Of a DNA stretch of 59,369 nucleotides, positions 40,768 to 59,369 are shown one piece after another. Location: NCBI GenBank assembly GCA_039714275.1, contig JBDLJO010000001.1, positions 1 through 59,369 of the forward strand. The letters run 5' to 3'. The stretch's first letter is position 1. Each line of letters opens with the position of its first letter. The translations under genes and the position numbers were made by a program. The stretch comes from Chloroflexota bacterium. Lineage in GTDB: Bacteria > Chloroflexota > Anaerolineae > Anaerolineales > UBA11858. Below the pieces are notes generated by a model. The model saw only the letters and a program-made list of their open reading frames with translations, was not told the DNA's origin and did no database searches.

Positions 40768-40785
40768 AAAAATAACCTCTCAAAA

Positions 40786-41862: not shown

Positions 41863-42228
41863 TTATTTATATTTTTTTCTTTTCTGAAGCCGTTCAGGAG
41901 GAGCATCCAAAGGTCCAAGTCGGGAACCAGCAGCGCTCCGGTAAATGAACGAATAAATTGTTACCAAGATACTTAAACTAGCTATCAATAATAAAATCCC
42001 AATCAATAAATAAGCAAAAAGGTATGGATACTGGGGAGGACCAGTCAATTCAATCGGAATTCCAAACCACCCATGTTGAAAATTGGCTTTCACTAATTCA
42101 ACCGCACCAGCATATGACATCGCGGGCAGCAAAAAAATCATTATACAACCAATGCCTCGCCAAACTGGGTGAATCTTCCAGCCCGGACCTGTATCTCCTG
42201 CAACCATATTAGGATCATATCTACCCAT
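41863..42228 (-). CDS. 121-aa two-TM membrane protein, hypothetical
   Basis: ATG overlaps the stop of the FAD/FeS subunit gene by 8 nt. Two hydrophobic helices and a basic C-terminus (ERLQKRKKYK). Confidence 0.55.
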   Translation of the reverse strand: MGRYDPNMVAGDTGPGWKIHPVWRGIGCIMIFLLPAMSYAGAVELVKANFQHGWFGIPIELTGPPQYPYLFAYLLIGILLLIASLSILVTIYSFIYRSAAGSRLGPLDAPPERLQKRKKYK

Positions 42229-43648: not shown

Positions 43649-43668
43649 AAATCCTCCAAATTTCAAGG

Positions 43669-45812: not shown

Positions 45813-46736
45813 TTATGGTAACTCCTCTTTAAAAGGTGCTTTGTTCCCTTCTTCAGTATAAAACCGCTGCGTTGGATAGGCAAAATCAATATCCTCATAC
45901 TGAGAAAAAACCTGTAAAACTTCTTCCCAGATTTCATGCTCACTGCTGCGTCGATTTCGAATACCACATAAATAGCGCAGGGTGAGCAAGATACCGCTTT
46001 CTCGAACGCTAGTGTAAACTGTAGGTGCTGATTGTGTATAACTGATCATATAGCCCTTAGCTTTTTCATCACTGTAACCGGTCAAATCACCATCTGGAAT
46101 AACGGCATATCTCTCAACAATTTCTTGAAGTAAGACTTTCGCTTTGCTCCAATCACTCTCAAACGTGATCAAGACTGGAATTTCATGCCATAGCTGCTCA
46201 ATACCACGCGAGAAATTTACCAAGGGTTCTAAAAACATTTTTCCATTGGGAATATGTATCACTCGCCCAGTGCTTTGATCCGCGTCAACCCAATTGCCAA
46301 TCTCCAAAATTGAAAATTCAAAAACATTGATATCAACAACATCGCCTGAATATTTCCCGATTTCAATGCGCTCGCCGATTGAAAAAGGTCGCCGCCATAA
46401 AATCAACACCCATCCAAAGAAATTTGCTATTGGGTCTTTCATGGCAATCGCGAGACCCGCTGAGAGTAAACCTAGATAGGTTGAAAAGGCATCTAATCCT
46501 CCACGCAGCCAAATTCGCCCGAAAACCAAAATCAACAAAAAATAGAAGAGATAAGTGCTATTTTTTCGCCATTGATAGCGCGTTCTTTCCGCTTCTATTC
46601 GCACTATGAAAAAACGCATAACAAAGCGATAGAATATCCAAACAACAATTACCCACAATAACGACAAGAGAAGCTTTTGTTGATTGTCAGGTGAGAGAAT
46701 GAGAGCTTTCTCTAGCCATGCGAGAAAGGTAGCCAT
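45813..46736 (-). CDS. mechanosensitive ion channel (MscS family)
   Basis: LGLLSAGLAIAMKDPIANFFG pore-helix region and the beta-domain GDVVDINVFEFSILEIGNW..GRVIHIPN. Confidence 0.8.
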   Translation of the reverse strand: MATFLAWLEKALILSPDNQQKLLLSLLWVIVVWIFYRFVMRFFIVRIEAERTRYQWRKNSTYLFYFLLILVFGRIWLRGGLDAFSTYLGLLSAGLAIAMKDPIANFFGWVLILWRRPFSIGERIEIGKYSGDVVDINVFEFSILEIGNWVDADQSTGRVIHIPNGKMFLEPLVNFSRGIEQLWHEIPVLITFESDWSKAKVLLQEIVERYAVIPDGDLTGYSDEKAKGYMISYTQSAPTVYTSVRESGILLTLRYLCGIRNRRSSEHEIWEEVLQVFSQYEDIDFAYPTQRFYTEEGNKAPFKEELP

Positions 46737-46752: not shown

Positions 46753-49623
46753 TTAATTCCTAAGAGCCTTCCAGATCTTCTCAGGAGTAATCGGAATCGA
46801 ATCGATATTAACACCAACAGCGTTAAAGACAGCATTGCCTACTGCAGGAGCAACACCATCTAAAGGAATTTCAGCAACCGCTTTGACGCCAAAGGGATGA
46901 CTTGGTTCAAAGACTTCTACAAATATGGTTTCCAATTCTGGCATCTCATGCGATTGAAAGATATGGTAATCCCGCAAATCTTTTTCACGCGGTTGGCCAC
47001 GATCGTTATAAACCATCTCTTCACAAACAGCGTAACCTAACGCTTGCACCATACCGCCTTCAATTTGACCTGTTGCCGCAATCGGATTAACAATAACACC
47101 CGAATCAACTGCCATCACCAATTTATCTACCGTTAATTGACCAGTTTCAATATCAACGGTCACTTCTGCAAATTGAGCAGCAAAAGGTGGTGGAGCAACT
47201 TCCGACATATATGATCCAACTGCCATGATCTGCTCTTGATCTTCCTCGTGCAATGAGTGCAAAGCTATGTCGGCCAAGGTCACCGAATTGCCATTTGATG
47301 CAATTGCTTTGGATTCTTTCAGATGAATTTTATCAGCACTCACACCCAACATCTTTTCAGCACGCTTTTTTATGATTGAAGCGATTTTATCTGCTGCTTT
47401 GGTCACTGCCGCCCCAGAAATATAGGTAGTACTTGAAGCATACGCTCCGACATCGAATGGGGTAAAATCAGTATCAGATGAGTAGACAATAAAGTTATCG
47501 GTAGAGCACCCTAGCACTTCGGCGGCCATTTGTGCTAAAACGGTATCTGAGCCAGTACCCAAATCAGTTGCTCCAATTAGTAGGTTGAAAGAGCCATCAT
47601 CATTAAGTTTAATACTAGCACCACCCATATCTAGATATGGAATGGCCGTACCTTGCATGACCATCGCAACGCCAATACCGCGTCTCAGGTGAGGTTTTCC
47701 CGAGACCTGCTGCCAATCTACATTGCCATATTTTTTGTCCCAATTAATTTCATTTTTACCTTGATTTACACATTCCTTGATTTCGTTGGTTTCGATAGTT
47801 TCCGGTCTCGGTTCACGCCCCTCACTCCAGGCAGTGCTGAAGGGATGCAGCTCGCCGGATCGCAGCGCATTCTTTAAACGAAATTCAATTGGATTTATAT
47901 TAAGTTTGTGAGCAATTTTTTCTAAGTGTCGTTCTACCGGCCAAAATCCTTGCGGCACCCCATACCCTCGATACGCACCTGAAGGTAAATGATTGGTGTA
48001 CACCACATCAGCATTAAATCGAATATTTGGGTTCTTGCGATATTTGCCATCTCCCACATACATTGCCATAGATTTGTGCCCGGTATTACCGGTGACCGTC
48101 AATGCGTGGGCGCCATTTGCCCCGGTATCACTCAGGGTATACATCTCATTTGCAGTGATGGTACCATCATTTTTAACACCGGTTTTCATTCGCACACGCA
48201 TGGGATGGCGGGCACGAGAGGATATAAACTCTTCTTCTCGACTAGTCTCATAAACTACCGGACTGCCGGTAGCAATGGTTAAGTGTGCTGCGACATCCTC
48301 AATCAGCATTTCTTGCTTCCCGCCAAAACCACCACCTATACGAGGTTTGACAACCCGGATACGCTTCACTGGCAAGTTAAGTACTGGGGCAATCATACGA
48401 CGCACATGAAAAGGCACCTGCGTACTCGTACGAATAACTAAGCGATCATCTTCGTCCCAATAGGTAATCACAGCATGAGGTTCAATATGCGCCTGCTGTA
48501 CTTTCGAAACAATATATTCAGATTCAAATATCTGGTCAGCCTCAGAAAAACCCTGTTCCAAATCACCGATATCAATCCGAATTTCTGCTGCTAAATTTCG
48601 AGAAGGGTCTGAATCAGCAAAGCCAACATATTCCGGAGAGTCGTGCAAAATTGGAGCGCCTGGCTGCATAGCCTCTCTGGTGTCCAGGAGCGGCTCCAGG
48701 ACTTCATATTCGACATCGATCAACCTAAGGGCGGCCTCAGCAATTTCGGCGGTCTCAGCGGCCACGAAAGCAACCCGATCACCGACAAAGCGAACCTTCT
48801 TATCAAGAGAAAAGGTGTCTAGCGGTCCAGGAATAGGGTGTGACTGCCCTGCGGTGGAATAGACGACACGAGGGATATCCTCATGCGTAAGCACCGCAGC
48901 AACACCATCTAAAGCGCGAGCGCGAGTGACATCAATATTTTTAATCAGTGCGTGCGCATGAGGGCTGTGCAATATTTTTGCGATTAACAAATCACGTATT
49001 TCAAAATCAGTCGTGAAAACTGATTTCCCTAAAGCCAATTTCACTGCATCCACTTTAGGCTCAGATTGCCCTACACTTTGAAAGGCTTCACTCTCAGGGA
49101 CTTTTCGAACTTGCGTATCATTAAAAGCAGGAATTGTCTCTCCTCGCATTACAGCAGCAGCTCGCTGAACAGCCTGGACAGGTTTTTTATATCCCGTGCA
49201 ACGACAAAGCACACCTGATAAAGCATCACGCACCTCCGTTTCACTTGGATTGGGTTGATGATCGATCAACGCTTTAGCCGCAAGAATTTGAGCCGGAGTG
49301 CAGTAACCACACTGAATGGCGCCTGTTTCGATAAAAGCTTGCTGAAGGGGGTGCAAACCATCAGATGTCCGCCAAGCATGATCAGGATGTTCTCCCAGCG
49401 CTTCAATAGTCGCTATTTTATGACCCTCCGCCTGAGCAGCCAAGTACAGCGTTGCATTAATAGGGTCCCCATCCACAAGTACTGTATCTGCTCCAGTTTG
49501 GCCATGCTCATCTCCAAACTTAACACCATGATAACCCAAAGAACGCAAAACCTTGAACAGACTATCCCCTGGTGCTGCTTGAATTTCTTTTTCTTCCCCA
49601 TTGATAAGTAATTTTATTTTCAT
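46753..49623 (-). CDS. fused [2Fe-2S]-domain and molybdopterin-binding subunit (XdhD / Mop-like, no FAD domain)
   Basis: 956 aa from ATG 49623. The second FeS motif is intact (QCGYCTP, VLCRCTGY). Hammerhead (LHSPHAHALIKNIDV), GGGFGGKQ, and C-terminal FGVKAVAE. The first ferredoxin-type Cys motif is degenerate. Confidence 0.85.
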   Translation of the reverse strand: MKIKLLINGEEKEIQAAPGDSLFKVLRSLGYHGVKFGDEHGQTGADTVLVDGDPINATLYLAAQAEGHKIATIEALGEHPDHAWRTSDGLHPLQQAFIETGAIQCGYCTPAQILAAKALIDHQPNPSETEVRDALSGVLCRCTGYKKPVQAVQRAAAVMRGETIPAFNDTQVRKVPESEAFQSVGQSEPKVDAVKLALGKSVFTTDFEIRDLLIAKILHSPHAHALIKNIDVTRARALDGVAAVLTHEDIPRVVYSTAGQSHPIPGPLDTFSLDKKVRFVGDRVAFVAAETAEIAEAALRLIDVEYEVLEPLLDTREAMQPGAPILHDSPEYVGFADSDPSRNLAAEIRIDIGDLEQGFSEADQIFESEYIVSKVQQAHIEPHAVITYWDEDDRLVIRTSTQVPFHVRRMIAPVLNLPVKRIRVVKPRIGGGFGGKQEMLIEDVAAHLTIATGSPVVYETSREEEFISSRARHPMRVRMKTGVKNDGTITANEMYTLSDTGANGAHALTVTGNTGHKSMAMYVGDGKYRKNPNIRFNADVVYTNHLPSGAYRGYGVPQGFWPVERHLEKIAHKLNINPIEFRLKNALRSGELHPFSTAWSEGREPRPETIETNEIKECVNQGKNEINWDKKYGNVDWQQVSGKPHLRRGIGVAMVMQGTAIPYLDMGGASIKLNDDGSFNLLIGATDLGTGSDTVLAQMAAEVLGCSTDNFIVYSSDTDFTPFDVGAYASSTTYISGAAVTKAADKIASIIKKRAEKMLGVSADKIHLKESKAIASNGNSVTLADIALHSLHEEDQEQIMAVGSYMSEVAPPPFAAQFAEVTVDIETGQLTVDKLVMAVDSGVIVNPIAATGQIEGGMVQALGYAVCEEMVYNDRGQPREKDLRDYHIFQSHEMPELETIFVEVFEPSHPFGVKAVAEIPLDGVAPAVGNAVFNAVGVNIDSIPITPEKIWKALRN

Positions 49624-49744
49624 CGTTGACCCTCGCATATTTTTTAAAACGAGATTTTCCGGAAAAGTAGATTTTCTATTAGTTTAGATTGCTAATTAGT
49701 CATTATCGACAAAAGAAACGAAATCTAATATTAAAATGTTCTAA

Positions 49745-52657
49745 TCACATCACCTTCGCAATATCCAGCCAATTGGTCCCGATTTCTTTGTTGGCAATAT
49801 TCATGGCTTCTTGAGAACCAAGCACAACCACTTTGCCATCATCTTTAATTTTTGCTAATATTTTGGCAAATTCCTTGAAATCATCTTGTTTTGTTGCAAT
49901 TACTTCATTACGATACTGCTGCAAGAATTCATCGCTGACACCTAATAAGTGACGTGTCATTGATGTGTATCCCTTCGCATCCGGGAGTCTATAAGCGTCT
50001 ATCCCACCTATGGCACCAATAATAACCTTGATCAATTCTTCATCGCTGAGATCGAGGGACATCAAGAATGGTGCTGTTCCATCATAATTTTCTAAACTAC
50101 GCAACAAATTGGGGTCACGATAAGAGAGATAATTAAACAATCCTGACTGCTGGTCAAATGTTGAGAATCCACCATAGGCTCCACCCTGTACTCGGATTTT
50201 CTCCCACAACCAGGTGGTCCCGAGATAGCGCGTAATAACTGCGATGGTTCCACTTAATTTATAACCCATTTGGTATAGATTTGCGCCCTTACCTACATAG
50301 TTGACTTGTGCGGGGATGCTCAAACCCTCATGGATTTGGTTATAATCGGGATCCCATTTTTCCTTTGATGCTTCCATTTGAGGCAATATGCTAATTAATT
50401 CCATCAAGAAAGGCTGGACTTTAAGCCAGGCATCTTCATTCACAGTAATATTTATCAGTAAATTACTTTGATTTATTAACAATTTGCGCAGCAATTCCAA
50501 TTTGCTTAGCACTCCAGACCAATCATTTTCAATCGATTCAATTAATTTTCTTAAGAAAAACAGAAAATCGATTCCACCAATTTGTTCAGAAACCCAATCT
50601 GCTTCATTGAATTTGGCTTTGAGACGGTTATTTACAACTATGTGTCCAGTAGGAATTAGACTCGCCTCTGCTCCAGCTTTCTCTTCAAGGACGATTTGAC
50701 GAAATCGTTCTTGATTGTCCAGATTGGCTGTTAGCAATATTTCTTCTAAAAGTTTTAAAAGTTTAGGAGCACTCTCAATAATTGATTTTCCCCGATAGAA
50801 CAAATATGTTGCGCTTTGATCTAAATCCTTAATCATAGAAGAAAACACATTTGGTCGAATTCCACCAGTATCACGTCCAATACGCTGAGAAAGTCTGACA
50901 AAGTCTTCAGTATCTGTACCCATTTCCAATAGGGCGCGTCCAAACAATGCCACAAAAGGTAGCAATTCTTGAGGTAATGCATGCAAATCAAAGCCAATAT
51001 CTAAATAAAGGATGCCGTTGGTCGAGAGGTCATGGTGCAAAATCGGAACATCATTAATCTTAGTATCAACAATCGGAATGGGTTTGTGATCTTTATCCAA
51101 ATCAGCCAAGGTAAGCATCGGCAAGGTGCGCAGTGCATCTGGTGAATCAGCCGTATTTTGAATTTCGATCAGCTTTTGTGTCATTTCTATAACGGCATCA
51201 ATTTGCTCCCCTGACATATCCTTTTGGATTTTTTCTAATTTGGCTCGCTCTTCCCTTTCATCACGCTGGTTTAACATCGGATCAGGATTCAACAAAACAC
51301 TTGTATGGTGAGAATTGTCAATCAAATAATTTTGAATAAGATCCTCAAAATATCGATCTCCATGACCTAATTTTTCTTTGATGATCCTAAGTGGGGTTTC
51401 AAAAGCCAGGGATGCAAATGGATCAAAGTCATATAACCAAAATTCCAAGGCTCGCAGCATGAAAACAATACCACGAGGGTAAGCGCCAGTGTTATTTTCT
51501 CGCAAATTAAACTCAATCGTATTAATCGAAGCAGCGACAGTATCAGGATCAATACCATTCGCGGACAAATCCTCCAGGGTTTCCTTGATCAATGCTTCGA
51601 CTTTATCGGCATCTTTACTATCAATCCCTTTCAGCCCTGTTGAGAAAAATATTTGTCGCAATTCGTTTTCTAACCCAATACCCGCTAAATCTTCTCCCAA
51701 ATTTGACTCAAGCAATGCTTTACGTAAAGGGGAAGCAGGACTTCCTAAAAGTATATGTTCTAGAATTGATAATGCCAATGAAATTTCTGCATCACCTTGC
51801 TCAGCCAACAGCCAATTTAAAGTTAAGTAACTTTTTGCATTTTCGTCGCTAGCAGCATAAGGGGCAGTGACAGTTTTAGGTGCATACATTTTTGTTTGCA
51901 ATGCAACGGCCGATTGAACAAGTGCTGCCGCATAATCAGAAAGGCATTCATTCATCAAACGTAATCGTTCACCAGGATCATCGTCCCCATAAAAGAAAAT
52001 TCGGGCGTTGGAAGGATGATAGTATTTCTCGTGGAAACCTTTAAATTGCTCATAAGTCAAATCGGGAATAATTTTTGGGTCGCCCCCTGAAGACACACTA
52101 TAAACATGTCCCGGGAACAGTGAGTATTGCACCTCGTTGTTCAAAATACGATTAGGATCTGAGTATGCCCCTTTCATCTCATTAAAAACAACACCCTTAT
52201 AAACCATCTCATCCTTGGGATCTTCCATTTCGTAATGCCAGCCTTCTTGATCAAGGATATTGGGGTGCAGTAAAGGGTGGAAGACGGCATCAATATAGAC
52301 ATCAATTAGGTTATAAAAGTCTTGTAAATTCTGACTTGCACAGGGATAACAAGTTTTATCAGGAAATGTGAATGCATTGACAAAAGTTTGTAACGATCCC
52401 TTGAGCAGCTCTACAAATGGCTCTTTAACAGGATATTTTTGTGATCCAGCCAGAACAGCATGTTCTAAAATATGAGCAACACCATCACTTACAATAGGGG
52501 GAGTGCGAAAAGTGATTCCAAAGACTTTGTTCTCATCATCATTTTCCATAGATATCAACTCGGCCCCTGTAATTTCATGACGATATAAGTTTGCAAGGGC
52601 ATTTATCTCGGGAATATTTTGTTTTTTGATTAACTTAAATCCATGCAACACTGTCAT
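49745..52657 (-). CDS. M16C-family (PreP-like) zinc metallopeptidase
   Basis: About 970 aa. Inverted zinc motif HILEH, FNEMKGAY, and a four-domain length typical of presequence-protease-like enzymes. Confidence 0.85.
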   Translation of the reverse strand: MTVLHGFKLIKKQNIPEINALANLYRHEITGAELISMENDDENKVFGITFRTPPIVSDGVAHILEHAVLAGSQKYPVKEPFVELLKGSLQTFVNAFTFPDKTCYPCASQNLQDFYNLIDVYIDAVFHPLLHPNILDQEGWHYEMEDPKDEMVYKGVVFNEMKGAYSDPNRILNNEVQYSLFPGHVYSVSSGGDPKIIPDLTYEQFKGFHEKYYHPSNARIFFYGDDDPGERLRLMNECLSDYAAALVQSAVALQTKMYAPKTVTAPYAASDENAKSYLTLNWLLAEQGDAEISLALSILEHILLGSPASPLRKALLESNLGEDLAGIGLENELRQIFFSTGLKGIDSKDADKVEALIKETLEDLSANGIDPDTVAASINTIEFNLRENNTGAYPRGIVFMLRALEFWLYDFDPFASLAFETPLRIIKEKLGHGDRYFEDLIQNYLIDNSHHTSVLLNPDPMLNQRDEREERAKLEKIQKDMSGEQIDAVIEMTQKLIEIQNTADSPDALRTLPMLTLADLDKDHKPIPIVDTKINDVPILHHDLSTNGILYLDIGFDLHALPQELLPFVALFGRALLEMGTDTEDFVRLSQRIGRDTGGIRPNVFSSMIKDLDQSATYLFYRGKSIIESAPKLLKLLEEILLTANLDNQERFRQIVLEEKAGAEASLIPTGHIVVNNRLKAKFNEADWVSEQIGGIDFLFFLRKLIESIENDWSGVLSKLELLRKLLINQSNLLINITVNEDAWLKVQPFLMELISILPQMEASKEKWDPDYNQIHEGLSIPAQVNYVGKGANLYQMGYKLSGTIAVITRYLGTTWLWEKIRVQGGAYGGFSTFDQQSGLFNYLSYRDPNLLRSLENYDGTAPFLMSLDLSDEELIKVIIGAIGGIDAYRLPDAKGYTSMTRHLLGVSDEFLQQYRNEVIATKQDDFKEFAKILAKIKDDGKVVVLGSQEAMNIANKEIGTNWLDIAKVM

Positions 52658-52698
52658 CTCCAACTCCAATCAGATCAATACCTATAATTATCCTTCAT

Positions 52699-53466
52699 CT
52701 AACTAACAGCTTTCATACACCGAGATATTAGTTTGGATGCCATTTCACTTCTATACTCAGAACTTGCCCAAGAATCACCAGCTTCCCGATAGGCATCTAA
52801 GGCTGCGGTTTCTGCCCCAGCACCGGTAGGACCATCCATTGCCAAAAGAGGTGCTGAGCCATAGCCTCCCAATGCAACCCGTGTGCGGCCTGATGGCCAT
52901 AGGGCTACAGCAGCACAAACGATTGGTAGATCAGCCGGTGACCGAGCTACATATTGATAATCCAAACGCACACCCGCAGGAAAAGCTACCTCAACGATCA
53001 ACGCTCCATTTAACAATTCTTCTCTCAAGGGCAGTAAATCTCCAATGCTTATTTGCTGCACATCTGTACCCTGCTTGGCAATCTCCAATTGCGCATCCAG
53101 GGCCAGCATGGCAGTCGTAAAAGCTGAGCGACCATCTGCGGACACCAATGTTCCAGCAACCGTTGCTACTTGCCGTGTGTTATAAGTGGCTTGATGTTGG
53201 ATTGTCCGAGACAAAGCTTTAGGCAGCCCTTCGGCATCCAACAAATTTTGCAAGGTCAATGCAGCTCCAAGTTTCCAAGTTTTATTCCCCGTTTTAAGTT
53301 TATCAATGCCAAGGGCTTGCAAATCAACAACTTCAAAATCGATATCAGAAGCCTGGTTGAGAACCGTACCGCCACCCAAGGGCCGCGTATTCGGATCTGT
53401 TCGTGCCAATAATGCTAAAGCCTCATCCACTTTCTCAGGGCGATGATAAGCTGTAATCATAATCAT
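52699..53466 (-). CDS. xanthine dehydrogenase family FAD-binding subunit (YgfM/CoxM-like, 255 aa)
   Basis: LGGGTVL, ATVAGTL and C-terminal SSEYRSEMA motifs of molybdopterin-dehydrogenase FAD-binding subunits. Confidence 0.75.
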   Translation of the reverse strand: MIMITAYHRPEKVDEALALLARTDPNTRPLGGGTVLNQASDIDFEVVDLQALGIDKLKTGNKTWKLGAALTLQNLLDAEGLPKALSRTIQHQATYNTRQVATVAGTLVSADGRSAFTTAMLALDAQLEIAKQGTDVQQISIGDLLPLREELLNGALIVEVAFPAGVRLDYQYVARSPADLPIVCAAVALWPSGRTRVALGGYGSAPLLAMDGPTGAGAETAALDAYREAGDSWASSEYRSEMASKLISRCMKAVS

Positions 53467-53529
53467 TCTCCAATTATCGATATAAGCCCATCCCCATTAG
53501 TAATTCCAGGGCTGACGATAGAAAAGCAT

Positions 53530-54006
53530 TTAATCTGGGTAAACCTTCCAACCTAAATCTTCAAGATCTACTTCATCCAAGGCTTCTGGGGGAACATCAA
53601 CTAAAATAGCTTCAGCCTCAATTAAGAGATTACCTCCTGGGCCAAAAACCTGGGCCTCAGACATAGCCGATCGTCGTTTAGTTTTTATTGCTTGGGCAAC
53701 AATTCTAATAGGTTTGCCAATTGGAACTGGTTTCCTATATTGCACATTCAGTTTGGCAGTGTACATAAAACGGACATTTTTGGGGTCGCTACCCATATGT
53801 ACACGCCCAAGAGCTTCGTCAACCAAAGCTGCGGTTATGCCGCCATGTACAATGCCAGGATAACCTTGGAAACGATCAGGAACAATATAGTTAACTTCAA
53901 TTTCTCCCGGCGCTGTTTCATAAAATTTCAGCTTCAAACCATATTCATTTTCCAGACCGCATACAAAACAATGGCGTGAGTTGGGTTGTTTGGTTTTGAT
54001 AATCAT
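53530..54006 (-). CDS. PaaI-family hotdog thioesterase
   Basis: HCFVCG N-terminal motif and GIVHGGITAALVDEALG. Confidence 0.65.
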   Translation of the reverse strand: MIIKTKQPNSRHCFVCGLENEYGLKLKFYETAPGEIEVNYIVPDRFQGYPGIVHGGITAALVDEALGRVHMGSDPKNVRFMYTAKLNVQYRKPVPIGKPIRIVAQAIKTKRRSAMSEAQVFGPGGNLLIEAEAILVDVPPEALDEVDLEDLGWKVYPD

Positions 54007-54083
54007 AAACAACAAGCTTTGTGGATATATTTATAGGTAAGGGACACTTCATAAAAATCAATAACATTCACTTAATTTAGCCG

Positions 54084-55082
54084 CTATTTCAACGAAAAAG
54101 TATCAATGAGTAATTTAACATTACCGCCAACAGGATAAAGAATTGGACAAGTTGCGCCACGTTTGATATACTCCTGCACTTTTGCACGGGCTTCATCGGG
54201 AGTACCCGAAGCAGTGATCCGATATATTAAATCTTCAGGTACAAGATGTTTGGCTTTGTCAATTTGCTCTTTCGTAGCTGGCCAACCCAAGATTGATTGA
54301 ATTTCAGCTACAACATCGTTTGATACTCCTGATGCTTTAGCTATATGCGGTTGTTGCGCAAGGTATTGGGTTAACAAACCTCTTGTATGGTCAATTGCTT
54401 TGTCATGATCTTCATCCACAGAACATACAACTAATTGTGGACGATCGATATCATCTATTGTTTTCCCTGCTTTCTTTGCACCAGCAGTCAACAAATCAAT
54501 GGCTTGGTCATTATATTCAGGCGGCACACAGTAATTGAGAACGGCTCCGTCACAAATTTCACCGGTAAGCTGCATCATCTTGGGTCCGGTCGCCCCTATC
54601 ATGATTTCTACATCTCGCGGTTCTCGCCGCCCATGAACTACATCCAATTCGATATCTTTTACTTGGTGAAATTCACCATCAAAGGTAACCCTTTCCATAT
54701 TCAGTAAGCGGCGCAGTACTTCAACAGTTTCCCGCATAGCCTTCAGGGGTTTACGTCGAGTAATTCCCACATTAGCAGCCAGAGGGTCCCACCAGGCGCC
54801 GATTCCACAGATCGTGCGGCCAGGAGCCAAATCATCCAAAGTTAAAAAAGTAGCCGCGAGTAATCCAATGTTGCGCGTCCAGTTATTCAGCACACCAGAA
54901 CCGACTTTAATTTTCTCGGTCACAGCAGCATACGCAGCCATAGGCACAATAGCATCGCGAACCAGGCGCGACTCAGCCTGCCAAATAGCTTCAAATCCGT
55001 GCTCTTCAGCATAGCGAGCATACTCTAACCCATCGCGCAAATCATGCGAATCTTGTAAATATAAAGCAACCCGATCAACCAT
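54084..55082 (-). CDS. LLM-class (luciferase-like) F420-dependent oxidoreductase
   Basis: 332 aa TIM-barrel LLM pattern ([26 protein letters not shown]). It sits among F420 genes, so the cofactor assignment is contextual. Confidence 0.65.
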
Positions 55083-55098
55083 TATTTACCTCCAATAG

Positions 55099-55710
55099 TT
55101 ATTTCAATTCAATATTTAATTTCTTTTCCAACAATGCTAAATCTTCAGGTTCATCTAAATCTAAAATAAGGGAGGAAAGTTCACAAATTTCTAGACGCGC
55201 ACCAGCTTCAAGAGCAAGTTCACAATGTTTCTTAAATGAATTATTTCCATATTGATATTCGATTAAATCAGGAGGTGATAGTATCAATGCGTTAGTTCCG
55301 TTTTTATTGCGATCCGGCACAACGACCACAACCGGGGGGTCAACGGCTTTGCTCAACATTACTAATATATCCTCAGGTGTAATTAGAGGTAAATCGGCAG
55401 GCAAAACTAAAACGCTTTGCGTTGCATAAGTCTTGGCAATTACCGTTGCTCTTGAAAGTGCAACGTTTATTTGAGGAGCGCCATTTTCCTGGACAGTTCG
55501 AGCACCCAAACTTCGAGCTAATGAAAGTGCCGCTTGATCACGACTGACAACCAGAACGTGGGCAATCTCTGGAACACTCATCAAGGTGTTAATAGTATTT
55601 GCCAACAACTCCTCGTTCAATGCAGTGCACTCGTCAGGAGTTAATACTTTAGCTAAACGAGACTTACCTCTCCGCAATGGCTTAACAGGAACAATGGCCC
55701 ATAAACTCAT
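55099..55710 (-). CDS. cofC: 2-phospho-L-lactate / phosphoenolpyruvate guanylyltransferase (CofC/FbiD)
   Basis: N-terminus LWAIVPVKPLRRGKSRLA, LVLPADLP and a GTNAL motif. Confidence 0.8.
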   Translation of the reverse strand: MSLWAIVPVKPLRRGKSRLAKVLTPDECTALNEELLANTINTLMSVPEIAHVLVVSRDQAALSLARSLGARTVQENGAPQINVALSRATVIAKTYATQSVLVLPADLPLITPEDILVMLSKAVDPPVVVVVPDRNKNGTNALILSPPDLIEYQYGNNSFKKHCELALEAGARLEICELSSLILDLDEPEDLALLEKKLNIELK

Positions 55711-55812
55711 AAATCCTATTTCCTTTCGTAGGCCTATATTTTATCATCAGACACAAGCTGAAACCGATCACTTCACCATTCAAACAACATATATTTCAAT
55801 TTCCATCTCCAC

Positions 55813-56211
55813 TTAGTGTCCATCAACATGCTCCGGGAAAATTTTAAAAATCACACGAATTTCATCAGGAGAATTGAGTTCAAAATATGCATCATCCGTG
55901 TATTTTCCGGCTAAGATATTGATGTGATCGCGTGCATTTTCCTCAGTGATCTCCACAACGCGACCTCGGATTTGCAGATAACGATACACGCTTCCCGTAT
56001 CCATGATTGCCAACGCAACTTGGGGGCGGGAGCGTATATTTCGATCCTTCGTACGACCTTTGGCTGTGTTGATCAAGATATATTCCCCATCAGTATTGAA
56101 CCAGACTGGCGTAACCTGCGGAGAGCCATCAGTCATCGTTGTCGCCAAAAAAGCAATTGCTTTTGTTTGATCATCTAGTAAATCTTGATATGATTCGGGG
56201 ATTCTTTTCAT
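55813..56211 (-). CDS. PPOX-class (pyridoxamine-5'-phosphate-oxidase-like split barrel) probable F420/FMN-dependent protein
   Basis: LATTMTDGSPQVTPVWF..DGEYILINTAKGRTKDRNI...VALAI pattern. About 132 aa. Confidence 0.65.
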   Translation of the reverse strand: MKRIPESYQDLLDDQTKAIAFLATTMTDGSPQVTPVWFNTDGEYILINTAKGRTKDRNIRSRPQVALAIMDTGSVYRYLQIRGRVVEITEENARDHINILAGKYTDDAYFELNSPDEIRVIFKIFPEHVDGH

Positions 56212-56296
56212 ATACACACACTTCTTCTCTGTTTATTAACAGACTTGGATAATTATTCATGCCTAGCATTGAAGTCTAAGCAATCCTGTTTTTTTC

Positions 56297-57064
56297 CTAA
56301 CGAAACATATCCTTATCTTTCGTACGCAGCAATTCTGGCAATTCCGCTTCCCGCAAGGGATAAGGAAGACCTCGGGCATGTACAATGGGCGTACCCTCAG
56401 CGGCTTGCCCCATCATCAAAGATGCCGCGGCGGCGAGTTCATCAGCAACACCTACTACAGTTACTTGCAGCTCATAATCAAATAAATCTTGTTCTCCACG
56501 CAAATCTGCTACACCAGGCACTCCAGAAATACCTATACTCACGCCAACAGTGCCCAAGCGCCATGCCCTACCGTGGGAGTCAATAATCATCACGCCAAGT
56601 TGCGCCCCGGTTTCTAGCTCCAATGCAGTTCGCAGTGCGTCAGCTGAAGAATCAGAATTTTCAGGCAGCAGCAAAACCCAGTCATCGGGATTTCCTCCAT
56701 CACCACGCACATTAGAATGATCAATGCCAGCGTTAGCACAGACAAATCCCAAATTATGTTCGACGATAATTAATCCCAGGCGCGTACGCAGTATTTCCTT
56801 GCTTTCAGACAAAATTAGCTCAACCAAACGTGGATCTTTTTCTGTTTCTATCCCTAAAGTCTCTGCTTTTAGAGAGGGGGTTATGTCGTTCAAGTTAACC
56901 AAGCGCCCCTCTGCCTTGGAGACAATTTTTTGCGCCAACACTAGAACATCACCATCCTGCAATGAAATTTGCGAGTAGGACAGTGCGCTTAAGATGATCT
57001 GCGCTAAATCATCACCGGGCTTGACCAAAGGAATACCTGAAAGTGCTGTAAGCGTTAACGGCAT
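56297..57064 (-). CDS. cofE: coenzyme F420-0:L-glutamate ligase (stand-alone CofE, no nitroreductase domain)
   Basis: GIPLVKPGDDLAQII, DGDVLVLAQKIVSKAEGR, CANAGID and IIDSHGRAWR motifs. The start is ambiguous (57064 or 57100). Confidence 0.85.
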   Translation of the reverse strand: MPLTLTALSGIPLVKPGDDLAQIILSALSYSQISLQDGDVLVLAQKIVSKAEGRLVNLNDITPSLKAETLGIETEKDPRLVELILSESKEILRTRLGLIIVEHNLGFVCANAGIDHSNVRGDGGNPDDWVLLLPENSDSSADALRTALELETGAQLGVMIIDSHGRAWRLGTVGVSIGISGVPGVADLRGEQDLFDYELQVTVVGVADELAAAASLMMGQAAEGTPIVHARGLPYPLREAELPELLRTKDKDMFR

Positions 57065-57080
57065 ATGATTTGTCCCGCTA

Positions 57081-57734
57081 TTAAATACCTGTAATGCCAA
57101 TACTGGCTGTTTTCACCTTATGGAATTTGTTCAAACTAATTAAAATAGCGGTCAGTCCTTCCACCGTAACAGCATTGACCAAGCCTCCAGCATAAAAAGA
57201 TTTCATACCGCCAGCCTCGGCTAATTCAATCACCTGCTCCGCCGCGTCAACATCATTTGAGCAAATTAGTACATCGCTATCAATAGGTTCGTCTAATTTT
57301 CTTAAGGCATGGGCGGGAACATTTTGGAATGCGGCCACAACACGGACCCCTTCTCCTAGAATTTCCTGAGCAATTTCTGCTGCTGCAGGTGGTGCAGGCG
57401 GTTTTGGGTCACGAAAGTCAATTCTAGCAGTAGCATCAGCCAGAATCTTGCCCTGCAGTGCATTTTTCAAACCATTTAACGCTGCTTGCTGGGCCGATTG
57501 CACTACTGTGAGTACAGATATGTCGGCTGCTCGGGCTGCAGCATCATTTTCCATGCCTGTAATCGTATCAATACCAAGCGTTAAATTTAGTTCAGCAGCG
57601 GTTATATCGGCTTTTTCCTTTTGGCGAGAACCGATAATAATTTGATAACCAGCGTTCGCCCAACGCAGAGCCAGGCCTGGTCCTTCTTTCCCAGTGCCGC
57701 CAAGGACGGCAACGATCGGTTTCTTCATGGTCAT
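57081..57734 (-). CDS. npdG: NADPH-dependent F420 reductase (Fno/NpdG)
   Basis: VAVLGGTGKEGPGLALRWANAGYQIIIGSR..EKA...ITGMENDAAA..DISVLTV closely parallels archaeal Fno. AAGGAG SD. Confidence 0.85.
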   Translation of the reverse strand: MTMKKPIVAVLGGTGKEGPGLALRWANAGYQIIIGSRQKEKADITAAELNLTLGIDTITGMENDAAARAADISVLTVVQSAQQAALNGLKNALQGKILADATARIDFRDPKPPAPPAAAEIAQEILGEGVRVVAAFQNVPAHALRKLDEPIDSDVLICSNDVDAAEQVIELAEAGGMKSFYAGGLVNAVTVEGLTAILISLNKFHKVKTASIGITGI

Positions 57735-57854
57735 ACTTATCTCCTTTAATCTCACCGCAGCTAAAAAACTGCTTTAATTATTTTTTCTTCAGAATTTCGT
57801 TTACTGTTTGTTTTTTTTACCAACTTTCACTATGTAAATTGATAAATGGGTTGA

Positions 57855-59210
57855 TTAACTTGAGTATCTTCCAACATAATTTTCGTACCGCTGCCAAATT
57901 TTTGGGGCCATTTCGCGAGCATGAGCTGCAATTGCTTCTTCATCCAAAGTAAGCAGTTTCCGTTCACGCATTAATATTTTTCCTTCTACGATGGTCGTAG
58001 TAATCATACTTTCGTTAAAACCAAAAATGATCTGCCAGGGCAAATTCCCTACAGTCAAGGGTGTATGTGGATGATAATCTACAAAAATCAAATCTGCTTG
58101 TGCGTCAGGAACAATCACCCCTAGTGGTGCTTCCGGGAAAAACATTTCGGCAAGCGCTGCGTTGTTGTAAATTCCCATTTGCATTACATCCATACCATTC
58201 ATTCGACGCGGATCGCTGTTTATGACTTTATGCAGCAAATATACTGTTTTCCACTCATCCCACATAGTTGAGGAAAATCCATCTGTTCCCAAGCAAACCG
58301 GTATTCCGAGACGCAGCAATGATTCAACCCCAGCGGCACCAACTGCATTATTCATATTTGAACGTGCCTGGTGAGTCACCCAAGTATTGGATTCGGCAAG
58401 CAGCTTAGCTTCACGGGCATCAATATGGATAGCGTGAGCAACAATGGAATTGGGTCCTAATATGCCATGCTTGTGCAAACGATCAACGGTTCGTAATCCA
58501 TATTTCTCCAGACTATCATACTGATCAACTTGATGTTCAGCGACATGGATATGAAATCCTGCACCTTCAGGTAACGCTGCTTGACAGGCATCCAATGTGG
58601 AAGCTGTTAATGTAAGTGATGCATGTAACCCAAAGGAAGCTGCTAACCGAGAATGTGATCGGACATAATTGGACTTTATGAAACGAACATTTTCTTGAAT
58701 GCCCGCTTTTGCGCCAGCTTCTCCATTGCGATCAGTTACTTCATAACACAATGCTGCCCGAACACCAGCTTCATCAACAGCATCAGCAATTACATCCATT
58801 GATCCGTCGATAAAATTTGGCGAAGCATGGTGGTCGATCAAAGTTGTTGCGCCGTGCTTAATGGCGTCTACCAGCATGATCAAGGCGGAGAAACGGACTG
58901 CTTCTTCATCTAGTGCCATATCCAAAGGCCACCATAATTTATCGAGTATTTCCGGAAAATCTTTAGGCGCCGGTCCTGGAATAGCCATACCTCGAGCAAA
59001 AGCACCATAAAAGTGTGTGTGAGCAACTATGCTGCCCGGCAAAATATATTGACCTTGGGCATCCAAACGGTCAACATCGGGGTATTTTTCATCCATTTCA
59101 ACTTGCGGACCAAGCTCTCTGATCTTGCCATCCTCGACATAGATGGCATAGTTTTCAAGAACACGATTTTCTTTTTCCCAGGTTATGACTTTCCCATTGG
59201 TAATCAGCAT
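57855..59210 (-). CDS. ssnA: SsnA-like amidohydrolase (putative aminohydrolase of the chlorohydrolase/deaminase group)
   Basis: HTHFYGAFARGM..PAPKDFPEILDKLWWPLDMALDEE..IDHHASPNFIDGS..THQARSNMNN..LGTDG parallels E. coli SsnA as I recall it (HNHFYSGLSRG..FISTLKNLWWRLDRALDEE..IDHHASP..HNARSNMNN). GGAGA SD. Confidence 0.7.
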   Translation of the reverse strand: MLITNGKVITWEKENRVLENYAIYVEDGKIRELGPQVEMDEKYPDVDRLDAQGQYILPGSIVAHTHFYGAFARGMAIPGPAPKDFPEILDKLWWPLDMALDEEAVRFSALIMLVDAIKHGATTLIDHHASPNFIDGSMDVIADAVDEAGVRAALCYEVTDRNGEAGAKAGIQENVRFIKSNYVRSHSRLAASFGLHASLTLTASTLDACQAALPEGAGFHIHVAEHQVDQYDSLEKYGLRTVDRLHKHGILGPNSIVAHAIHIDAREAKLLAESNTWVTHQARSNMNNAVGAAGVESLLRLGIPVCLGTDGFSSTMWDEWKTVYLLHKVINSDPRRMNGMDVMQMGIYNNAALAEMFFPEAPLGVIVPDAQADLIFVDYHPHTPLTVGNLPWQIIFGFNESMITTTIVEGKILMRERKLLTLDEEAIAAHAREMAPKIWQRYENYVGRYSS

Positions 59211-59257
59211 ACTTTTCTCCATATAAGACAAGAACCAATTTCACAAACAACAATTAT

Positions 59258-59369
59258 CTAAAAATCAATCACAAATTCTTCCTGGAAAACATTTTCCAAC
59301 GCATCAGGTATAAGTTTTCGCACCCATTCAATTGCTTCTTGCCCATTTATTTTTAAGTGATGCTTAGCT
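59258..59369 (-). CDS. 3' end (36 codons) of an unidentified CDS running off the window
   Basis: Open minus-strand frame ..AKHHLKINGQEAIEWVRKLIPDALENVFQEEFVIDF* with TAG at 59258-59260, 26 nt upstream of the ssnA-like ORF. Confidence 0.4.
   Translation of the reverse strand, partial: AKHHLKINGQEAIEWVRKLIPDALENVFQEEFVIDF

Follow-up and report, generated by a model that had tools for sequence, protein, structure and literature searches.

A predicted urate-reducing gene cluster combining SsnA, coenzyme F420 genes and a luciferase-like oxidoreductase in Anaerolineae (Chloroflexota)

Gene content of the locus

The window, which is the whole stretch of DNA that was analysed (59,369 nt), carries near its right end a long string of genes on one strand (Table 1). 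The ten genes from ssnA to the xdhD-type gene, which the original prediction had described as co-directional and tightly spaced, were all recovered on the minus strand with the expected boundaries. Measured from the likely start codons (for CofE near 57064, where the homologue alignment begins), the gaps across the ten genes were approximately 16 to 121 nt. On the coding strand, none of these gaps held a terminator-like site, and promoters and terminators were counted no more often than in shuffled sequences.

Table 1. Features of the cluster, in the direction of transcription
Feature	Position	Strand	Basis and remarks
Dual-specificity (DSP/PTP-type) phosphatase, gene 3' end	59258..59369	-	C-terminus match; cut by contig end
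SsnA-family amidohydrolase	57855..59210	-	NCBIfam, BLASTP; predicted ring-opening hydrolase for reduced purine
Fno/NpdG, NADPH-dependent F420 reductase	57081..57755	-	TIGR01915, 186.5 bits (cut-off 149.8); Pfam F420_oxidored
CofE, F420-0:gamma-glutamyl ligase	56297..57100	-	TIGR01916, 266.8 bits (cut-off 180.65)
PPOX-class (FDOR-B type) F420-dependent oxidoreductase	55813..56217	-	TIGR03618, 94.1 bits (cut-off 79.05)
CofC, guanylyltransferase of F420 biosynthesis	55099..55710	-	TIGR03552, 159.8 bits (cut-off 105)
Mer-like F420-type luciferase-like oxidoreductase (LLM)	54084..55082	-	Pfam Bac_luciferase; candidate 2,8-dioxopurine (yanthine) reductase
Hotdog-fold (4HBT) thioesterase-like protein	53530..54015	-	Pfam 4HBT
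YgfM-like FAD subunit of XdhD-type enzyme, 255 aa	52699..53466	-	Pfam FAD_binding_5
PreP-like M16C metallopeptidase	49745..52669	-	Pfam M16C_assoc, PreP_C, Peptidase_M16, M16_C; between FAD subunit and XdhD-type gene
XdhD-type [2Fe-2S] and molybdopterin fusion, 956 aa	46753..49623	-	Fer2_2, hammerhead, MoCoBD_1/2; predicted urate to 2,8-dioxopurine reductase/dehydrogenase
MscS-type channel protein	45813..46736	-	Pfam MS_channel_2nd
DHH-CBS-DHHA2 phosphoesterase	44465..45811	-	Pfam
XdhC/CoxI-family Moco insertion/maturation factor	43669..44463	-	Pfam XdhC_CoxI, XdhC_C
FAD and 2x[2Fe-2S] fusion subunit, second xanthine-dehydrogenase-like enzyme	42221..43666	-	Pfam FAD_binding_5, CO_deh_flav_C, Fer2, Fer2_2
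DUF6909 protein, 568 aa	39061..40767	-	PF21850, 744 bits
Molybdopterin subunit of second XDH, 734 aa, pucD/XdhA-like	36847..39051	-	TIGR03196 pucD

The genes downstream of the xdhD-type gene include a second xanthine dehydrogenase (XDH). Its molybdopterin subunit matched TIGR03196 (pucD) best, at 574 bits and under the cut-off, with 30% identity to E. coli XdhA, and its FAD/FeS fusion was XdhB-like and XdhC-like in NCBIfam. The XdhC/CoxI-family protein aligned with the N-terminal half of E. coli YqeB at 34% identity (BLASTP). The DUF6909 protein had no solved relative by sequence. The same window also harbours an SHMT-GcvT fusion, together with gcvH, gcvPA and gcvPB behind a glycine riboswitch.

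Assignment of the proteins

The SsnA protein cleared both curated NCBIfam cut-offs (NF005540, 503 bits against 444; TIGR03314, 483 bits against 455), and an NCBI MAG protein named SsnA was 100% identical to it. BLASTP was run both ways against the 22 proteins of the E. coli K-12 xdhA-uacT region, and within that region the predicted ssnA-ygfM-xdhD trio was upheld, its members being reciprocal best hits of E. coli SsnA, YgfM and XdhD. For SsnA the identity was 34% (232 bits); the HxH, IDHHASP and RSNMNN motifs were common to the window protein and E. coli SsnA, and GuaD was without them. Judged by profile and motif, the protein is a bona fide member of the SsnA family, for which a ring-opening role in urate degradation has been demonstrated (PMC12507026).

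The best NCBIfam family of the 956-aa fusion was TIGR03313 (XdhD), at 718 bits and under the cut-off of 1102. In BLASTP, identity to E. coli XdhD was 37% over the full length (610 bits, compared with 420 bits for XdhA); in a separate comparison it was approximately 39%, against approximately 35% to E. coli XdhA. The fusion has the XdhD-specific insertion, with a Glu aligned to Glu606 of E. coli XdhD (WSEGREPRP vs IGEGKAPTS), and E. coli XdhA has a gap at this site. Li et al. proposed that Glu606 of XdhD orients urate (PMC12507026). By these alignments, the large molybdenum enzyme is of the XdhD type and not of the XdhA type. The FAD subunit matched TIGR03312 (YgfM) best, at 74 bits and far under the cut-off of 241; its identity to E. 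coli YgfM was 29% (70 bits, compared with 46 bits for XdhB).

The best 17 NCBIfam families of the LLM protein were all F420-type LLM families, and the best nine solved structures by sequence were all F420 enzymes, the top one being jMer (E 9e-37). The Foldseek matches at ranks 1-30 were also all F420-dependent LLMs, from a weak query model (pLDDT 66). Profile, solved structures compared by sequence, and fold thus agree in placing the protein in the F420-type class. Its homologues were 84-95% identical among the best 120 matches, and the LLM gene was the most conserved gene of the cluster. The PPOX-class protein, for which the best solved structure by sequence was 3f7e, is a second F420-class enzyme of the cluster. 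Neither CofD nor FO synthase was encoded within the 59-kb window.

It had been noted that none of the other enteric partners was visible. No homologue of YgfK, HyuA, YgeW, YgeX, YgeY or YqeA was found in the 59 kb, and no DHO_dh (UacX-type) protein was detected by Pfam in any open reading frame of at least 110 aa. This absence is in part an assembly artefact, as only 138 nt of contig remain upstream of the longest ssnA reading frame. A few relatives did carry such genes nearby (HyuA-like at L079 and L155, YgeX-like at L061). An M20 peptidase neighbouring the clusters of relatives was considered as YgeY and rejected, as it belongs to a dipeptidase family. The frame cut by the contig end terminates in ...INGQEAIEWVRKLIPDALENVFQEEFVIDF followed by a stop. 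Matching C-termini were found in reading frames of approximately 165-190 aa directly upstream of ssnA in relatives (L005-L009, L013, L024, L025, L032, L052, L065, L077), and these match Pfam DSPc/PTP-SAK.

Conservation of the cluster in related genomes

The neighbourhood of ssnA was surveyed at 80 loci of GTDB species representatives, 70 of which had at least 1.5 kb of room and 52 at least 7 kb downstream. The adjacency to F420 genes, on which the original prediction depended, is conserved: fno and cofE each followed ssnA directly at 66/70 loci. Among the 52 longer loci, fno and cofE were each present downstream at 50, cofC at 46, cofD at 43 and the same LLM gene at 43, and the PPOX gene was found in 22 clusters. 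The recurrent order across the 80 loci was ssnA, fno, cofE, further genes, cofD, cofC, LLM. When the survey was started from the LLM gene instead, ssnA was found at 22 of the 26 loci with enough upstream room, and fno, cofE and cofC at 24-25. No FO synthase gene was seen in any surveyed cluster.

XDH-family genes, XdhD-type copies included, recurred on either flank, with at least one at 14 of 20 well-flanked LLM loci. At 21/42 related loci no XDH gene lay closer than 10 kb to ssnA, so that the purine link recurs without being universal. The unit that does not vary in Anaerolineae consists of ssnA, the F420 genes and the LLM gene, and the XDH modules adjoin it on either side. The description of the locus as a contiguous trio into which F420 genes have intruded was thus the wrong way round. 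Beyond the core, the flanks varied (upstream a NACHT-HEAT gene, NUDIX, DSP phosphatase or XDH; downstream GlcDEF, or hotdog plus XDH), which indicates that the ssnA/F420/LLM linkage is not just residual synteny.

At locus L070 the LLM gene directly follows ssnA, with no cof genes between them. At four loci (L056, L058, L060, L071) cofC is followed by an inserted YgfK/PydA-type reductase and a second SsnA, and at L058, which extends far enough, this pair stands directly before the LLM gene. The presence of such a pair suggests that the locus attracts enzymes of the same chemistry.

The hotdog and PreP genes, which stand between members of the trio, are themselves conserved. The hotdog gene recurs between the LLM gene and the FAD subunit of the XdhD-type (type B) module at most loci having that module. 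The PreP gene follows the FAD subunit at L007, L069 and L108, where the loci end, and the order FAD subunit, PreP, XdhD-like was found at L088 and L134. The conservation extends further downstream. The DHH-CBS-DHHA2 gene also follows the XdhD-type gene in L006, L008, L032, L076, L087, L093, L145 and L155, the FAD/FeS fusion gene comes after the XdhC gene in many of the related clusters, and the DUF6909 gene lies between the FAD/FeS and molybdopterin subunits in L132; in L155 it comes directly after FAD/FeS, at which point the locus ends. The MscS-type protein had no labelled counterpart in the related clusters surveyed, and its gene is probably incidental. The interval from 36.8 to 59.2 kb of the window forms a single conserved supercluster that includes a second XDH, which is an addition of the present analysis.

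Discussion

The region from approximately 36.8 to 59.2 kb probably represents the Anaerolineae version of the upper part of an anaerobic, reductive urate (2,8-dioxopurine, "yanthine") pathway. Several observations led to this reading: a YgfK- or UacX-type reductase is absent from the window; the molybdenum enzyme is XdhD-type with the Glu606 loop, and SsnA scores over its curated cut-offs; the LLM protein is F420-type; the ssnA/F420/LLM linkage is conserved from both starting points, with direct adjacency in L070 and recurrent XDH genes; and a YgfK/PydA-type reductase with a second SsnA, and YqeB- and YqeC-like genes, occur in some related clusters. Against it, the XdhD-like and YgfM-like proteins score under their equivalog cut-offs, half of the loci have no nearby XDH gene, HyuA- or YgeX-like genes occur near few relatives, CofD and FO synthase are missing from the window, and the PPOX protein is a second F420-class enzyme of the cluster.

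In the proposed scheme, the conventional XDH, matured by XdhC, would convert hypoxanthine or xanthine to urate, and the XdhD-type enzyme with its FAD subunit would remove the 6-oxo group to give 2,8-dioxopurine. The Mer-like LLM enzyme would then dearomatise this ring with a hydride from F420H2, and SsnA would hydrolyse the reduced ring and so pull the unfavourable reduction forward. Fno would recharge F420 from NADPH, and CofC and CofE would contribute to its supply, with CofD encoded elsewhere. The substrate, the direction of each reaction and co-transcription are as we infer them. We also infer that the LLM enzyme is the reductase; the PPOX protein could take this role instead.

That an F420-linked module may replace the YgfK-type reductase, as originally predicted, is supported by comparative genomics and by an independent published inference. 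The accompanying statement that no F420-coupled version had been described is out of date, as Li et al. (2025), in an SsnA similarity network, had already flagged a putative F420-dependent yanthine reductase replacing YgfK/UacX in Chloroflexota (PMC12507026). According to the same authors YgfK needs SsnA to drive its reaction (PMC12507026), which would rationalise the tight linkage of reductase and SsnA. The embedding of F420 biosynthesis genes in the cluster is added here; it was not found in the main text of that paper.

The module might be a real functional unit acting on an N-heterocycle other than 2,8-dioxopurine, with the XDH modules as interchangeable feeders; candidates would be a different product of the XDH family, a purine that is oxidised or damaged, a pterin, or a ring of the nicotinate or pyrimidine type. 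The variable attachment of three XDH-family enzymes (type A lying upstream, the XdhD-type B lying downstream, and a Mo2/FAD-FeS type) would fit this, as would the half of loci without a nearby XDH gene, the NUDIX and phosphatase genes often preceding ssnA, and the low identity of the Chloroflexota SsnA to the E. coli protein. The second, more canonical SsnA beside a YgfK/PydA-type reductase in some clusters could likewise indicate two parallel substrate lines. However, SsnA clears a model of equivalog level that was built on the characterised family, the XdhD-type partner has the XdhD-specific loop, and no cluster gene points to an alternative substrate. Another substrate is considered rather unlikely.

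It is less probable still that an F420 operon (fno, cofE, cofC and an unrelated F420 enzyme) merely lies beside uncoupled purine-catabolic genes. F420 genes often form clusters of their own, the MscS and PreP genes are unrelated genes inside the cluster of the window, and the related loci all belong to a single class, so that shared ancestry contributes to the conservation. Nevertheless, the gene order persists down to approximately 63% SsnA identity with completely different outer flanks, and ssnA is the first gene of a string with very short gaps. The retention of ssnA and LLM only in L070, the presence in four species of a canonical reductase-SsnA pair inserted into this string, and a conservation of LLM exceeding that of every other cluster gene also speak against juxtaposition.

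There is very little likelihood that the LLM protein is a true Mer-type methylene-tetrahydropterin reductase of C1 metabolism, with SsnA unrelated to it. Among characterised proteins, Mer is the closest to it in sequence and in fold, and the gcv and SHMT genes share the window; yet these genes lie outside the conserved cluster at other loci, and the protein stays far under the two equivalog cut-offs for Mer (173 vs 276 and 170 vs 349; NCBIfam). The position of jMer Asp96 is occupied by Trp (HMMER alignment), and that of the essential jMer Glu6, by ungapped extrapolation, by Tyr8 and not Glu (residue roles from PMC11094777). Equally remote is a role of SsnA in the F420 pathway itself, such as modifying or salvaging a deazaflavin or pyrimidine precursor: this would explain its place at the head of the cof operon, and would fit an adjacency to fno and cofE tighter than to any XDH gene and the lack of FO synthase in the clusters, but we know of no F420-pathway step that needs an amidohydrolase, F420-producing lineages outside Anaerolineae make the cofactor without SsnA, and the family has its demonstrated urate role (PMC12507026).

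Under the preferred urate reading, the step that differs from known systems would be the reduction of the 2,8-dioxopurine ring, which falls to YgfK in E. coli and, in C. difficile, to UacX and is here proposed for the LLM enzyme. A likeness is seen at the edge of the cluster: the YqeB/YqeC genes adjoin the uricolytic genes in E. coli, and YqeB- and YqeC-like genes close several of the related Anaerolineae clusters.

Organisation of the gene cluster

Ten co-directional genes were found at 46753-59231 on the minus strand of the window, in the layout first described. Assignments were made with NCBIfam and with Pfam, the latter run on all window ORFs of at least 110 aa. Neighbouring genes among the ten lie approximately 16-121 nt apart, and across the full run of 21 co-directional genes the largest gap measures approximately 174 nt. 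No terminator-like site was present in any gap, and promoter and terminator counts did not exceed the shuffle expectation, in a scan which has no power to place operon boundaries; the ten genes are presumably co-transcribed. A search of Rfam detected no riboswitch or other RNA family at 31-59 kb, even at an E-value of 0.1. The window closes with 112 nt from the 3' end of a DSP-type phosphatase gene. The deposited start of ssnA, at 59210, gives a protein of 451 aa, and the longest ORF is 458 aa.

Table. Genes of the cluster and other features of the window, with supporting family matches (NCBIfam and Pfam unless stated; curated cut-offs in brackets).
Feature	Coordinates	Strand	Evidence
TPR/BTAD regulator, 1084 aa	9431-12685		
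DUF5317 membrane protein	12995-13576	+	
Small ORF	13525-13884	+	PF14407 (Frankia-type ribosomal peptide family), sub-threshold, 27 bits (48)
Glycine riboswitch	25712-25817	+	Rfam RF00504, 56.5 bits (gathering score 32)
SHMT-GCV_T fusion, 1041 aa	32688-35813	-	Pfam SHMT (~87-423), GCV_T (~637-905)
Three-part XDH	36847-44463		
DUF6909 protein, 568 aa	39061-40767	-	PF21850, 744 bits
XdhC/YqeB-N-like, 264 aa	43669-44463		
FeS+Moco fusion, 956 aa	46753-49623	-	Fer2_2, hammerhead, MoCoBD_1/2
PreP/M16C peptidase, 974 aa	49745-52669	-	Pfam M16C_assoc, PreP_C
FAD subunit, 255 aa	52699-53466	-	Pfam FAD_binding_5
Hotdog protein	53530-54015	-	Pfam 4HBT
LLM (luciferase-like oxidoreductase)	54084-55082	-	Pfam Bac_luciferase
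CofC	55099-55710	-	TIGR03552, 160 bits (105)
PPOX, F420 class	55813-56217	-	TIGR03618, 94 bits (79)
CofE	56297-57100	-	TIGR01916, 267 bits (181)
Fno	57081-57755	-	TIGR01915, 186 bits (150)
SsnA	57855-59210	-	NF005540, 503 bits (444); TIGR03314, 483.3 bits (455.5)

SsnA, XdhD-type and YgfM-like proteins

The assignment of three of the products to the E. coli SsnA, YgfM and XdhD families was upheld, as each was the reciprocal best match of its counterpart by BLASTP, in a comparison with 22 E. coli K-12 proteins encoded from xdhA to uacT. SsnA is the only member of this trio above a curated equivalog cut-off; it exceeds both cut-offs of its family (IPR017700), and the next-best NCBIfam family scored 236 bits. 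It is 34% identical to E. coli SsnA over 451 columns (232 bits), and the motifs HxH, IDHHASP, HIHxAE, RSNMNN and GTDG are common to the two proteins and absent from GuaD. More than 100 homologues were listed at 68-87% identity, those with a named source being from Anaerolineales or Chloroflexi, and the relatives surveyed here were 63-87% identical.

The 956-aa fusion is of the XdhD type. It matches E. coli XdhD over its full length (residues 1-953 of XdhD) at 37% identity and 610 bits, versus 420 bits for XdhA, and its Fer2_2, Ald_Xan_dh_C, MoCoBD_1 and MoCoBD_2 domains without an FAD domain reproduce the XdhD architecture (approximately 950 aa, N-terminal 2x[2Fe-2S]). The XdhD model TIGR03313 is its top family, yet the score is below the cut-off (717.9 versus 1101.9 bits). 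An XdhD-specific loop containing the equivalent of Glu606, a residue proposed to orient urate in the E. coli enzyme (PMC12507026), is present (WSEGREPRP aligned to IGEGKAPTS of E. coli XdhD) and falls in a gap in E. coli XdhA. The 255-aa FAD subunit is 29% identical to YgfM (70 bits, versus 46 bits for XdhB); the YgfM model TIGR03312 (family length approximately 257 aa) is its top family, with a score below the cut-off (74.4 versus 241.5 bits).

F420 genes and missing partners

CofC, CofE and Fno all scored above their equivalog cut-offs. In most relatives cofD and a nitroreductase gene resembling the C-terminal domain of FbiB lie between cofE and cofC. These two genes are missing from the cluster in the window (55710-55813) and in the close relative L087 (13460-13825); for F420 to be made, they must be encoded at another site of the genome. 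By tblastn no CofD, nitroreductase, cluster-type NUDIX or M20 protein was found in the window, and no FO synthase was recognised by Pfam among the window ORFs or in those examined from related loci. In about 37 related loci an ORF of approximately 850 aa lies directly upstream of ssnA; it was considered as FbiC/FO synthase and rejected, because its Pfam domains are those of a NACHT NTPase with HEAT repeats. This gene ends 3-6 nt before ssnA on the same strand, in loci with no XDH nearby (L010-L021, L026, L028, L029, L036-L039, L042-L048, L051, L054 and others), and its product might be a regulator.

The original prediction noted that the E. coli partner genes were not visible, and indeed no homologue of YgfK, HyuA, YgeW, YgeX, YgeY or YqeA was found by BLAST in the 59 kb. 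[quoted passage not shown] There was also no Pyr_redox_2/DHO_dh protein among the window ORFs by Pfam. The divergent M20 peptidase of relatives was rejected as YgeY, as identity was 24% over 151 aa and the protein belongs to the PRK08201 dipeptidase family.

Conservation of the ssnA-F420-LLM linkage

An SsnA alignment was scanned over one genome per GTDB species, giving at least 595 matches; the best 80 loci were examined, with ORFs labelled by BLASTP against a reference set. All of these 80 were from Anaerolineae-type MAGs, except for two oddly binned contigs. The gene string ssnA>fno>cofE>(LigT/PPOX/nitroreductase)>cofD>cofC>LLM was nearly invariant. Where at least 1.5 kb was available downstream of ssnA (70 loci), fno and cofE were each present in 66, and in the 52 loci with at least 7 kb, fno and cofE were each found in 50, cofC in 46, and cofD and the LLM gene each in 43. 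The converse survey, centred on the LLM in metagenome contigs, gave the same picture: where 7 kb or more was available upstream (26 loci), cofE was present in 25, fno and cofC each in 24, and ssnA in 22. The adjacency of ssnA to F420 genes, which the original prediction proposed to survey, is conserved in both directions. An XdhD-like gene was present in 21 of 42 ssnA loci.

Outside this core the neighbourhoods differ. Upstream of ssnA there is the NACHT-HEAT gene in some loci and a NUDIX, DSP phosphatase or XDH gene in others, and downstream of the LLM gene either GlcDEF or a hotdog gene with XDH follows. That the outer flanks vary while the core stays argues for selection on the linkage and not for residual synteny. 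In one locus (L070, 23-2394; 77% identity to the cluster LLM) the LLM gene immediately follows ssnA with no cof genes between them. This contig is binned as Acidobacteriota, which mis-binning or transfer could explain.

XDH modules and related loci

Three XDH-family forms attach to the ssnA-F420-LLM core. Type A lies upstream, in the order FAD subunit, FeS+Moco fusion, NUDIX, ssnA; its top families are selenium-dependent XDH and XdhB, and it is approximately 30% identical to E. coli XdhD. Type B, to which the fusion in the window belongs, lies downstream, in the order LLM, hotdog, 255-aa FAD subunit, PreP (in some loci), FeS+Moco fusion, and is approximately 40% identical to E. coli XdhD; the Glu606-type loop was present in 12 of 12 downstream type B copies. 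The third is a three-part XDH, made up of XdhC, an FAD+FeS fusion and a pucD-like Mo subunit, which follows in many loci and is also present in the window. Of 20 LLM loci with good flanks, 14 had at least one XDH-family gene, and half of the relatives in the ssnA survey had no XDH nearby. The purine link is frequent, not universal.

YqeB- and YqeC-like genes sometimes accompany the three-part XDH, and end the cluster downstream of the Mo subunit in five metagenome loci (L100, L114, L133, L158 and L163). One of the 2025 studies (bioRxiv 10.1101/2025.04.24.650524) uses these genes to mark molybdenum hydroxylases with the labile-selenium cofactor trait. In the window there is the single XdhC/YqeB-N-like gene and no YqeC.

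Gene order in the window recurs in its relatives. Two loci (L132 and L155) repeat it through the DUF6909 gene, L132 also through the Mo subunit, and two others (L088 and L134) repeat the order hotdog, FAD subunit, PreP, XdhD. These matches make the window from 36.8 to 59.2 kb one conserved supercluster, in which the hotdog and PreP genes that separate the trio are conserved members. A PreP-type M16C peptidase gene lies between the YgfM-like and XdhD-type genes in L007, L069, L088, L108 and L134. The nearest relatives on longer contigs were L085/L086 (SsnA 87% identical) and L087 (81%), which carry upstream of ssnA a divergent M20 gene followed by the type A FAD subunit and XDH, NUDIX and DSP genes; synteny with L085 and L087 suggests a like set beyond position 59369, where the window ends. 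In L087 ssnA is followed by fno, cofE, PPOX, cofC, LLM, hotdog, the type B FAD subunit and XdhD, and DHH-CBS, with no cofD in the cluster.

Four loci of a sub-clade (L056, L058, L060 and L071) carry after cofC an 835-aa protein combining GltD-like and PreA/DHO_dh-like parts, a reductase of the YgfK/PydA type, together with a second, more canonical SsnA (NF005540, 561 bits). This paralogue shares 46% identity with the cluster SsnA, and its score on the SsnA model is the higher of the two. In L058, where the locus is long enough, the pair lies directly before the LLM gene (15633-19486). The insertion gives these clusters two reductase-SsnA pairs each and suggests that the locus collects enzymes of like chemistry. 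A YgfK/PydA-type reductase and a second SsnA were also seen in L050 and L122.

The LLM as a candidate reductase

Of all the cluster proteins the LLM is the best conserved, with 84-95% identity over its top 120 database matches compared to 68-87% for SsnA; the LLMs of metagenome loci were 79-86% identical to that of the window. Its top 17 NCBIfam matches are F420-type LLM families. In a search of solved structures by sequence the best nine were all F420 enzymes, led by Mer (E-value 9e-37, approximately 27% identity). The AlphaFold model was weak (pLDDT 66) because the available homologues are all more than 84% identical, and served for fold-level ranking only, not for reading the active site; Foldseek ranks 1-30 were all F420-dependent LLMs, with a TM-score of approximately 0.73. 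At the cis-peptide motif, GSGV of the LLM aligns to GPGV of the Mer enzyme jMer. By these comparisons the LLM is nearer to the F420-dependent than to the FMN-dependent families, and is a candidate for F420 binding and hydride transfer.

The LLM was rejected as Mer itself. The scores were below the equivalog cut-offs of TIGR03555 (170 versus 349 bits) and NF002619 (173 versus 276 bits), and the position of jMer Asp96 is occupied by Trp in the alignment. Tyr8 would stand at the position of the essential Glu6, by an ungapped extrapolation that is a weak guide. Glu6 and Asp96 of Mer are the catalytic and acidic pterin-binding positions (PMC11094777).

Other features of the window

The glycine riboswitch, which is the sole Rfam match in the window, lies upstream of gcvH (25997), gcvPA (26418) and gcvPB (27742), an ordinary arrangement. 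The SHMT-GCV_T fusion is unusual; it lies at the distal end of the co-directional run beside an aminotransferase gene, and is outside the conserved cluster elsewhere. The DUF6909 gene lies between an EamA transporter gene and the gene for the Mo subunit of the second XDH, and likewise comes after FAD/FeS in L132 and L155. Neither a solved structure related by sequence nor an NCBIfam match was found for its product. Inspection by eye suggests a nucleoside phosphorylase or AMP-nucleosidase fold for the C-terminal third (DYPLG..., GKAATLNG, IEMEAGPY). The small PF14407-like ORF adjoins the DUF5317 gene and lies downstream of the TPR/BTAD regulator gene.

Proposed pathway and its significance

The anaerobic urate pathway of E. 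coli and Clostridium was solved in two 2025 studies (PMC12507026; bioRxiv 10.1101/2025.04.24.650524). In it, XdhD-YgfM (or XdhAC, "DOPDH") dehydroxylates urate to 2,8-dioxopurine (yanthine), YgfK ("DOPOR"), or UacX in C. difficile, carries out the reductive dearomatisation of 2,8-dioxopurine, and SsnA opens the ring after the reductase step. If the cluster acts on the same substrate and in the same directions, Fno would reduce F420 with NADPH, the second XDH would supply urate from (hypo)xanthine, and the XdhD-type enzyme would convert urate to 2,8-dioxopurine. The LLM, in preference to the PPOX protein, would then transfer hydride from F420H2 to 2,8-dioxopurine. SsnA is predicted to open the ring of the reduced 2,8-dioxopurine by hydrolysis, which would pull the reaction forward.

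In a broader form of this proposal, Anaerolineae would make F420 largely as a cofactor dedicated to reducing the purine ring anaerobically. The LLM would be the first 2,8-dioxopurine (purine) reductase to depend on F420H2, and selection would have kept the genes for SsnA, Fno and cofactor biosynthesis together in a single operon. We rate this as slightly short of an even chance. If true, it would give the first defined physiological role of F420 in this abundant, mostly uncultured class, and a new reaction class for deazaflavin enzymes. Reduction of 2,8-dioxopurine with F420H2 would be a third, mechanistically distinct route for the thermodynamically difficult dearomatisation in anaerobic urate degradation, besides YgfK (NAD(P)H/FeS/flavin) and UacX (ferredoxin/FMN). 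The metagenome contigs carrying the cluster include sediment and fermentation samples, and with the at least 595 SsnA relatives this indicates that the cluster could be relevant to the turnover of purines and nitrogen beyond the gut. For the engineering of uricolytic strains, the LLM might be a candidate reductase that tolerates oxygen and is free of FeS.

Comparison with known systems

The window resembles the E. coli pathway in its SsnA-family member, its XdhD-type fusion with the Glu606 loop and its short YgfM-like FAD subunit, and also in having an XdhC/YqeB-like maturation factor and a second XdhA-like XDH nearby. It differs in that the trio is not contiguous, YgfK, HyuA, YgeW, YgeY, YgeX and YqeA are missing, and the place of the reductase is occupied by the F420-type LLM with fno, cofE and cofC; the window proteins are only 29-37% identical to those of E. 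coli. In the variant of C. difficile and C. sporogenes (UacX and UacY, with XdhAC as DOPDH) the reductase was likewise swapped and SsnA kept. However, UacX is an FMN/FeS enzyme of the DHO_dh type, whereas its place in the window would be taken by a TIM-barrel LLM predicted to depend on a deazaflavin, and the electron donor would be NADPH via Fno and F420 in place of ferredoxin.

Mer (PDB 8qpl, 1z69) is the closest solved relative of the LLM, sharing the TIM-barrel LLM fold and GxGV at the non-prolyl cis-peptide site, and the substrates of both would be reduced N-heterocycles accepting hydride. Unlike Mer, the LLM scores below the Mer cut-offs, apparently lacks Glu6 and Asp96, and occurs in a bacterial, non-methanogenic setting. 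Bacterial F420 operons (cofC/fbiD, cofD/fbiA, cofE/fbiB and fbiC) with fno share CofC, CofE and Fno with the window, and CofD and the nitroreductase with its relatives. In contrast to these operons, no gene for CofD, the nitroreductase or FO synthase was recognised in the window, and the cluster is headed by the catabolic hydrolase gene ssnA and ended by the LLM gene.

The original prediction held that an F420-linked module replaces YgfK in such a pathway and that no F420-coupled version had been described. The second part is out of date. Li et al. (2025, PMC12507026) had already made the same inference, from Chloroflexota SsnA neighbourhoods which, according to these authors, have neither YgfK nor UacX, so that it was in print as an untested bioinformatic remark. 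Apart from that study, our literature search found no paper tying F420 to the pathway; in a 2021 review of F420 the word "purine" is absent, and a role of F420 in Chloroflexi, for example in biodegradation, is put forward there only by inference (PMC8498797). The gene arrangement is real, and comparative genomics supports the predicted F420-linked reading, the idea of which is not new. The window, with its LLM gene five genes from ssnA and with neither YgfK nor UacX, as predicted for the Chloroflexota variant, belongs to exactly the group of Li et al. (sections 9 and 13) and is a further member of the variant predicted in 2025. The main text of that paper names only a PF00296 neighbour; it does not mention the fno, cofE, (cofD) and cofC genes between ssnA and the LLM gene, the up to three XDH-type modules, or the conserved hotdog and PreP genes. 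New here are the findings that the genes for F420 biosynthesis and recharge belong integrally to the ssnA-LLM unit and are near-invariant in it, that several XDH types, a true XdhD type among them, dock onto this unit, and that the 22-kb arrangement of the window is conserved as a whole.
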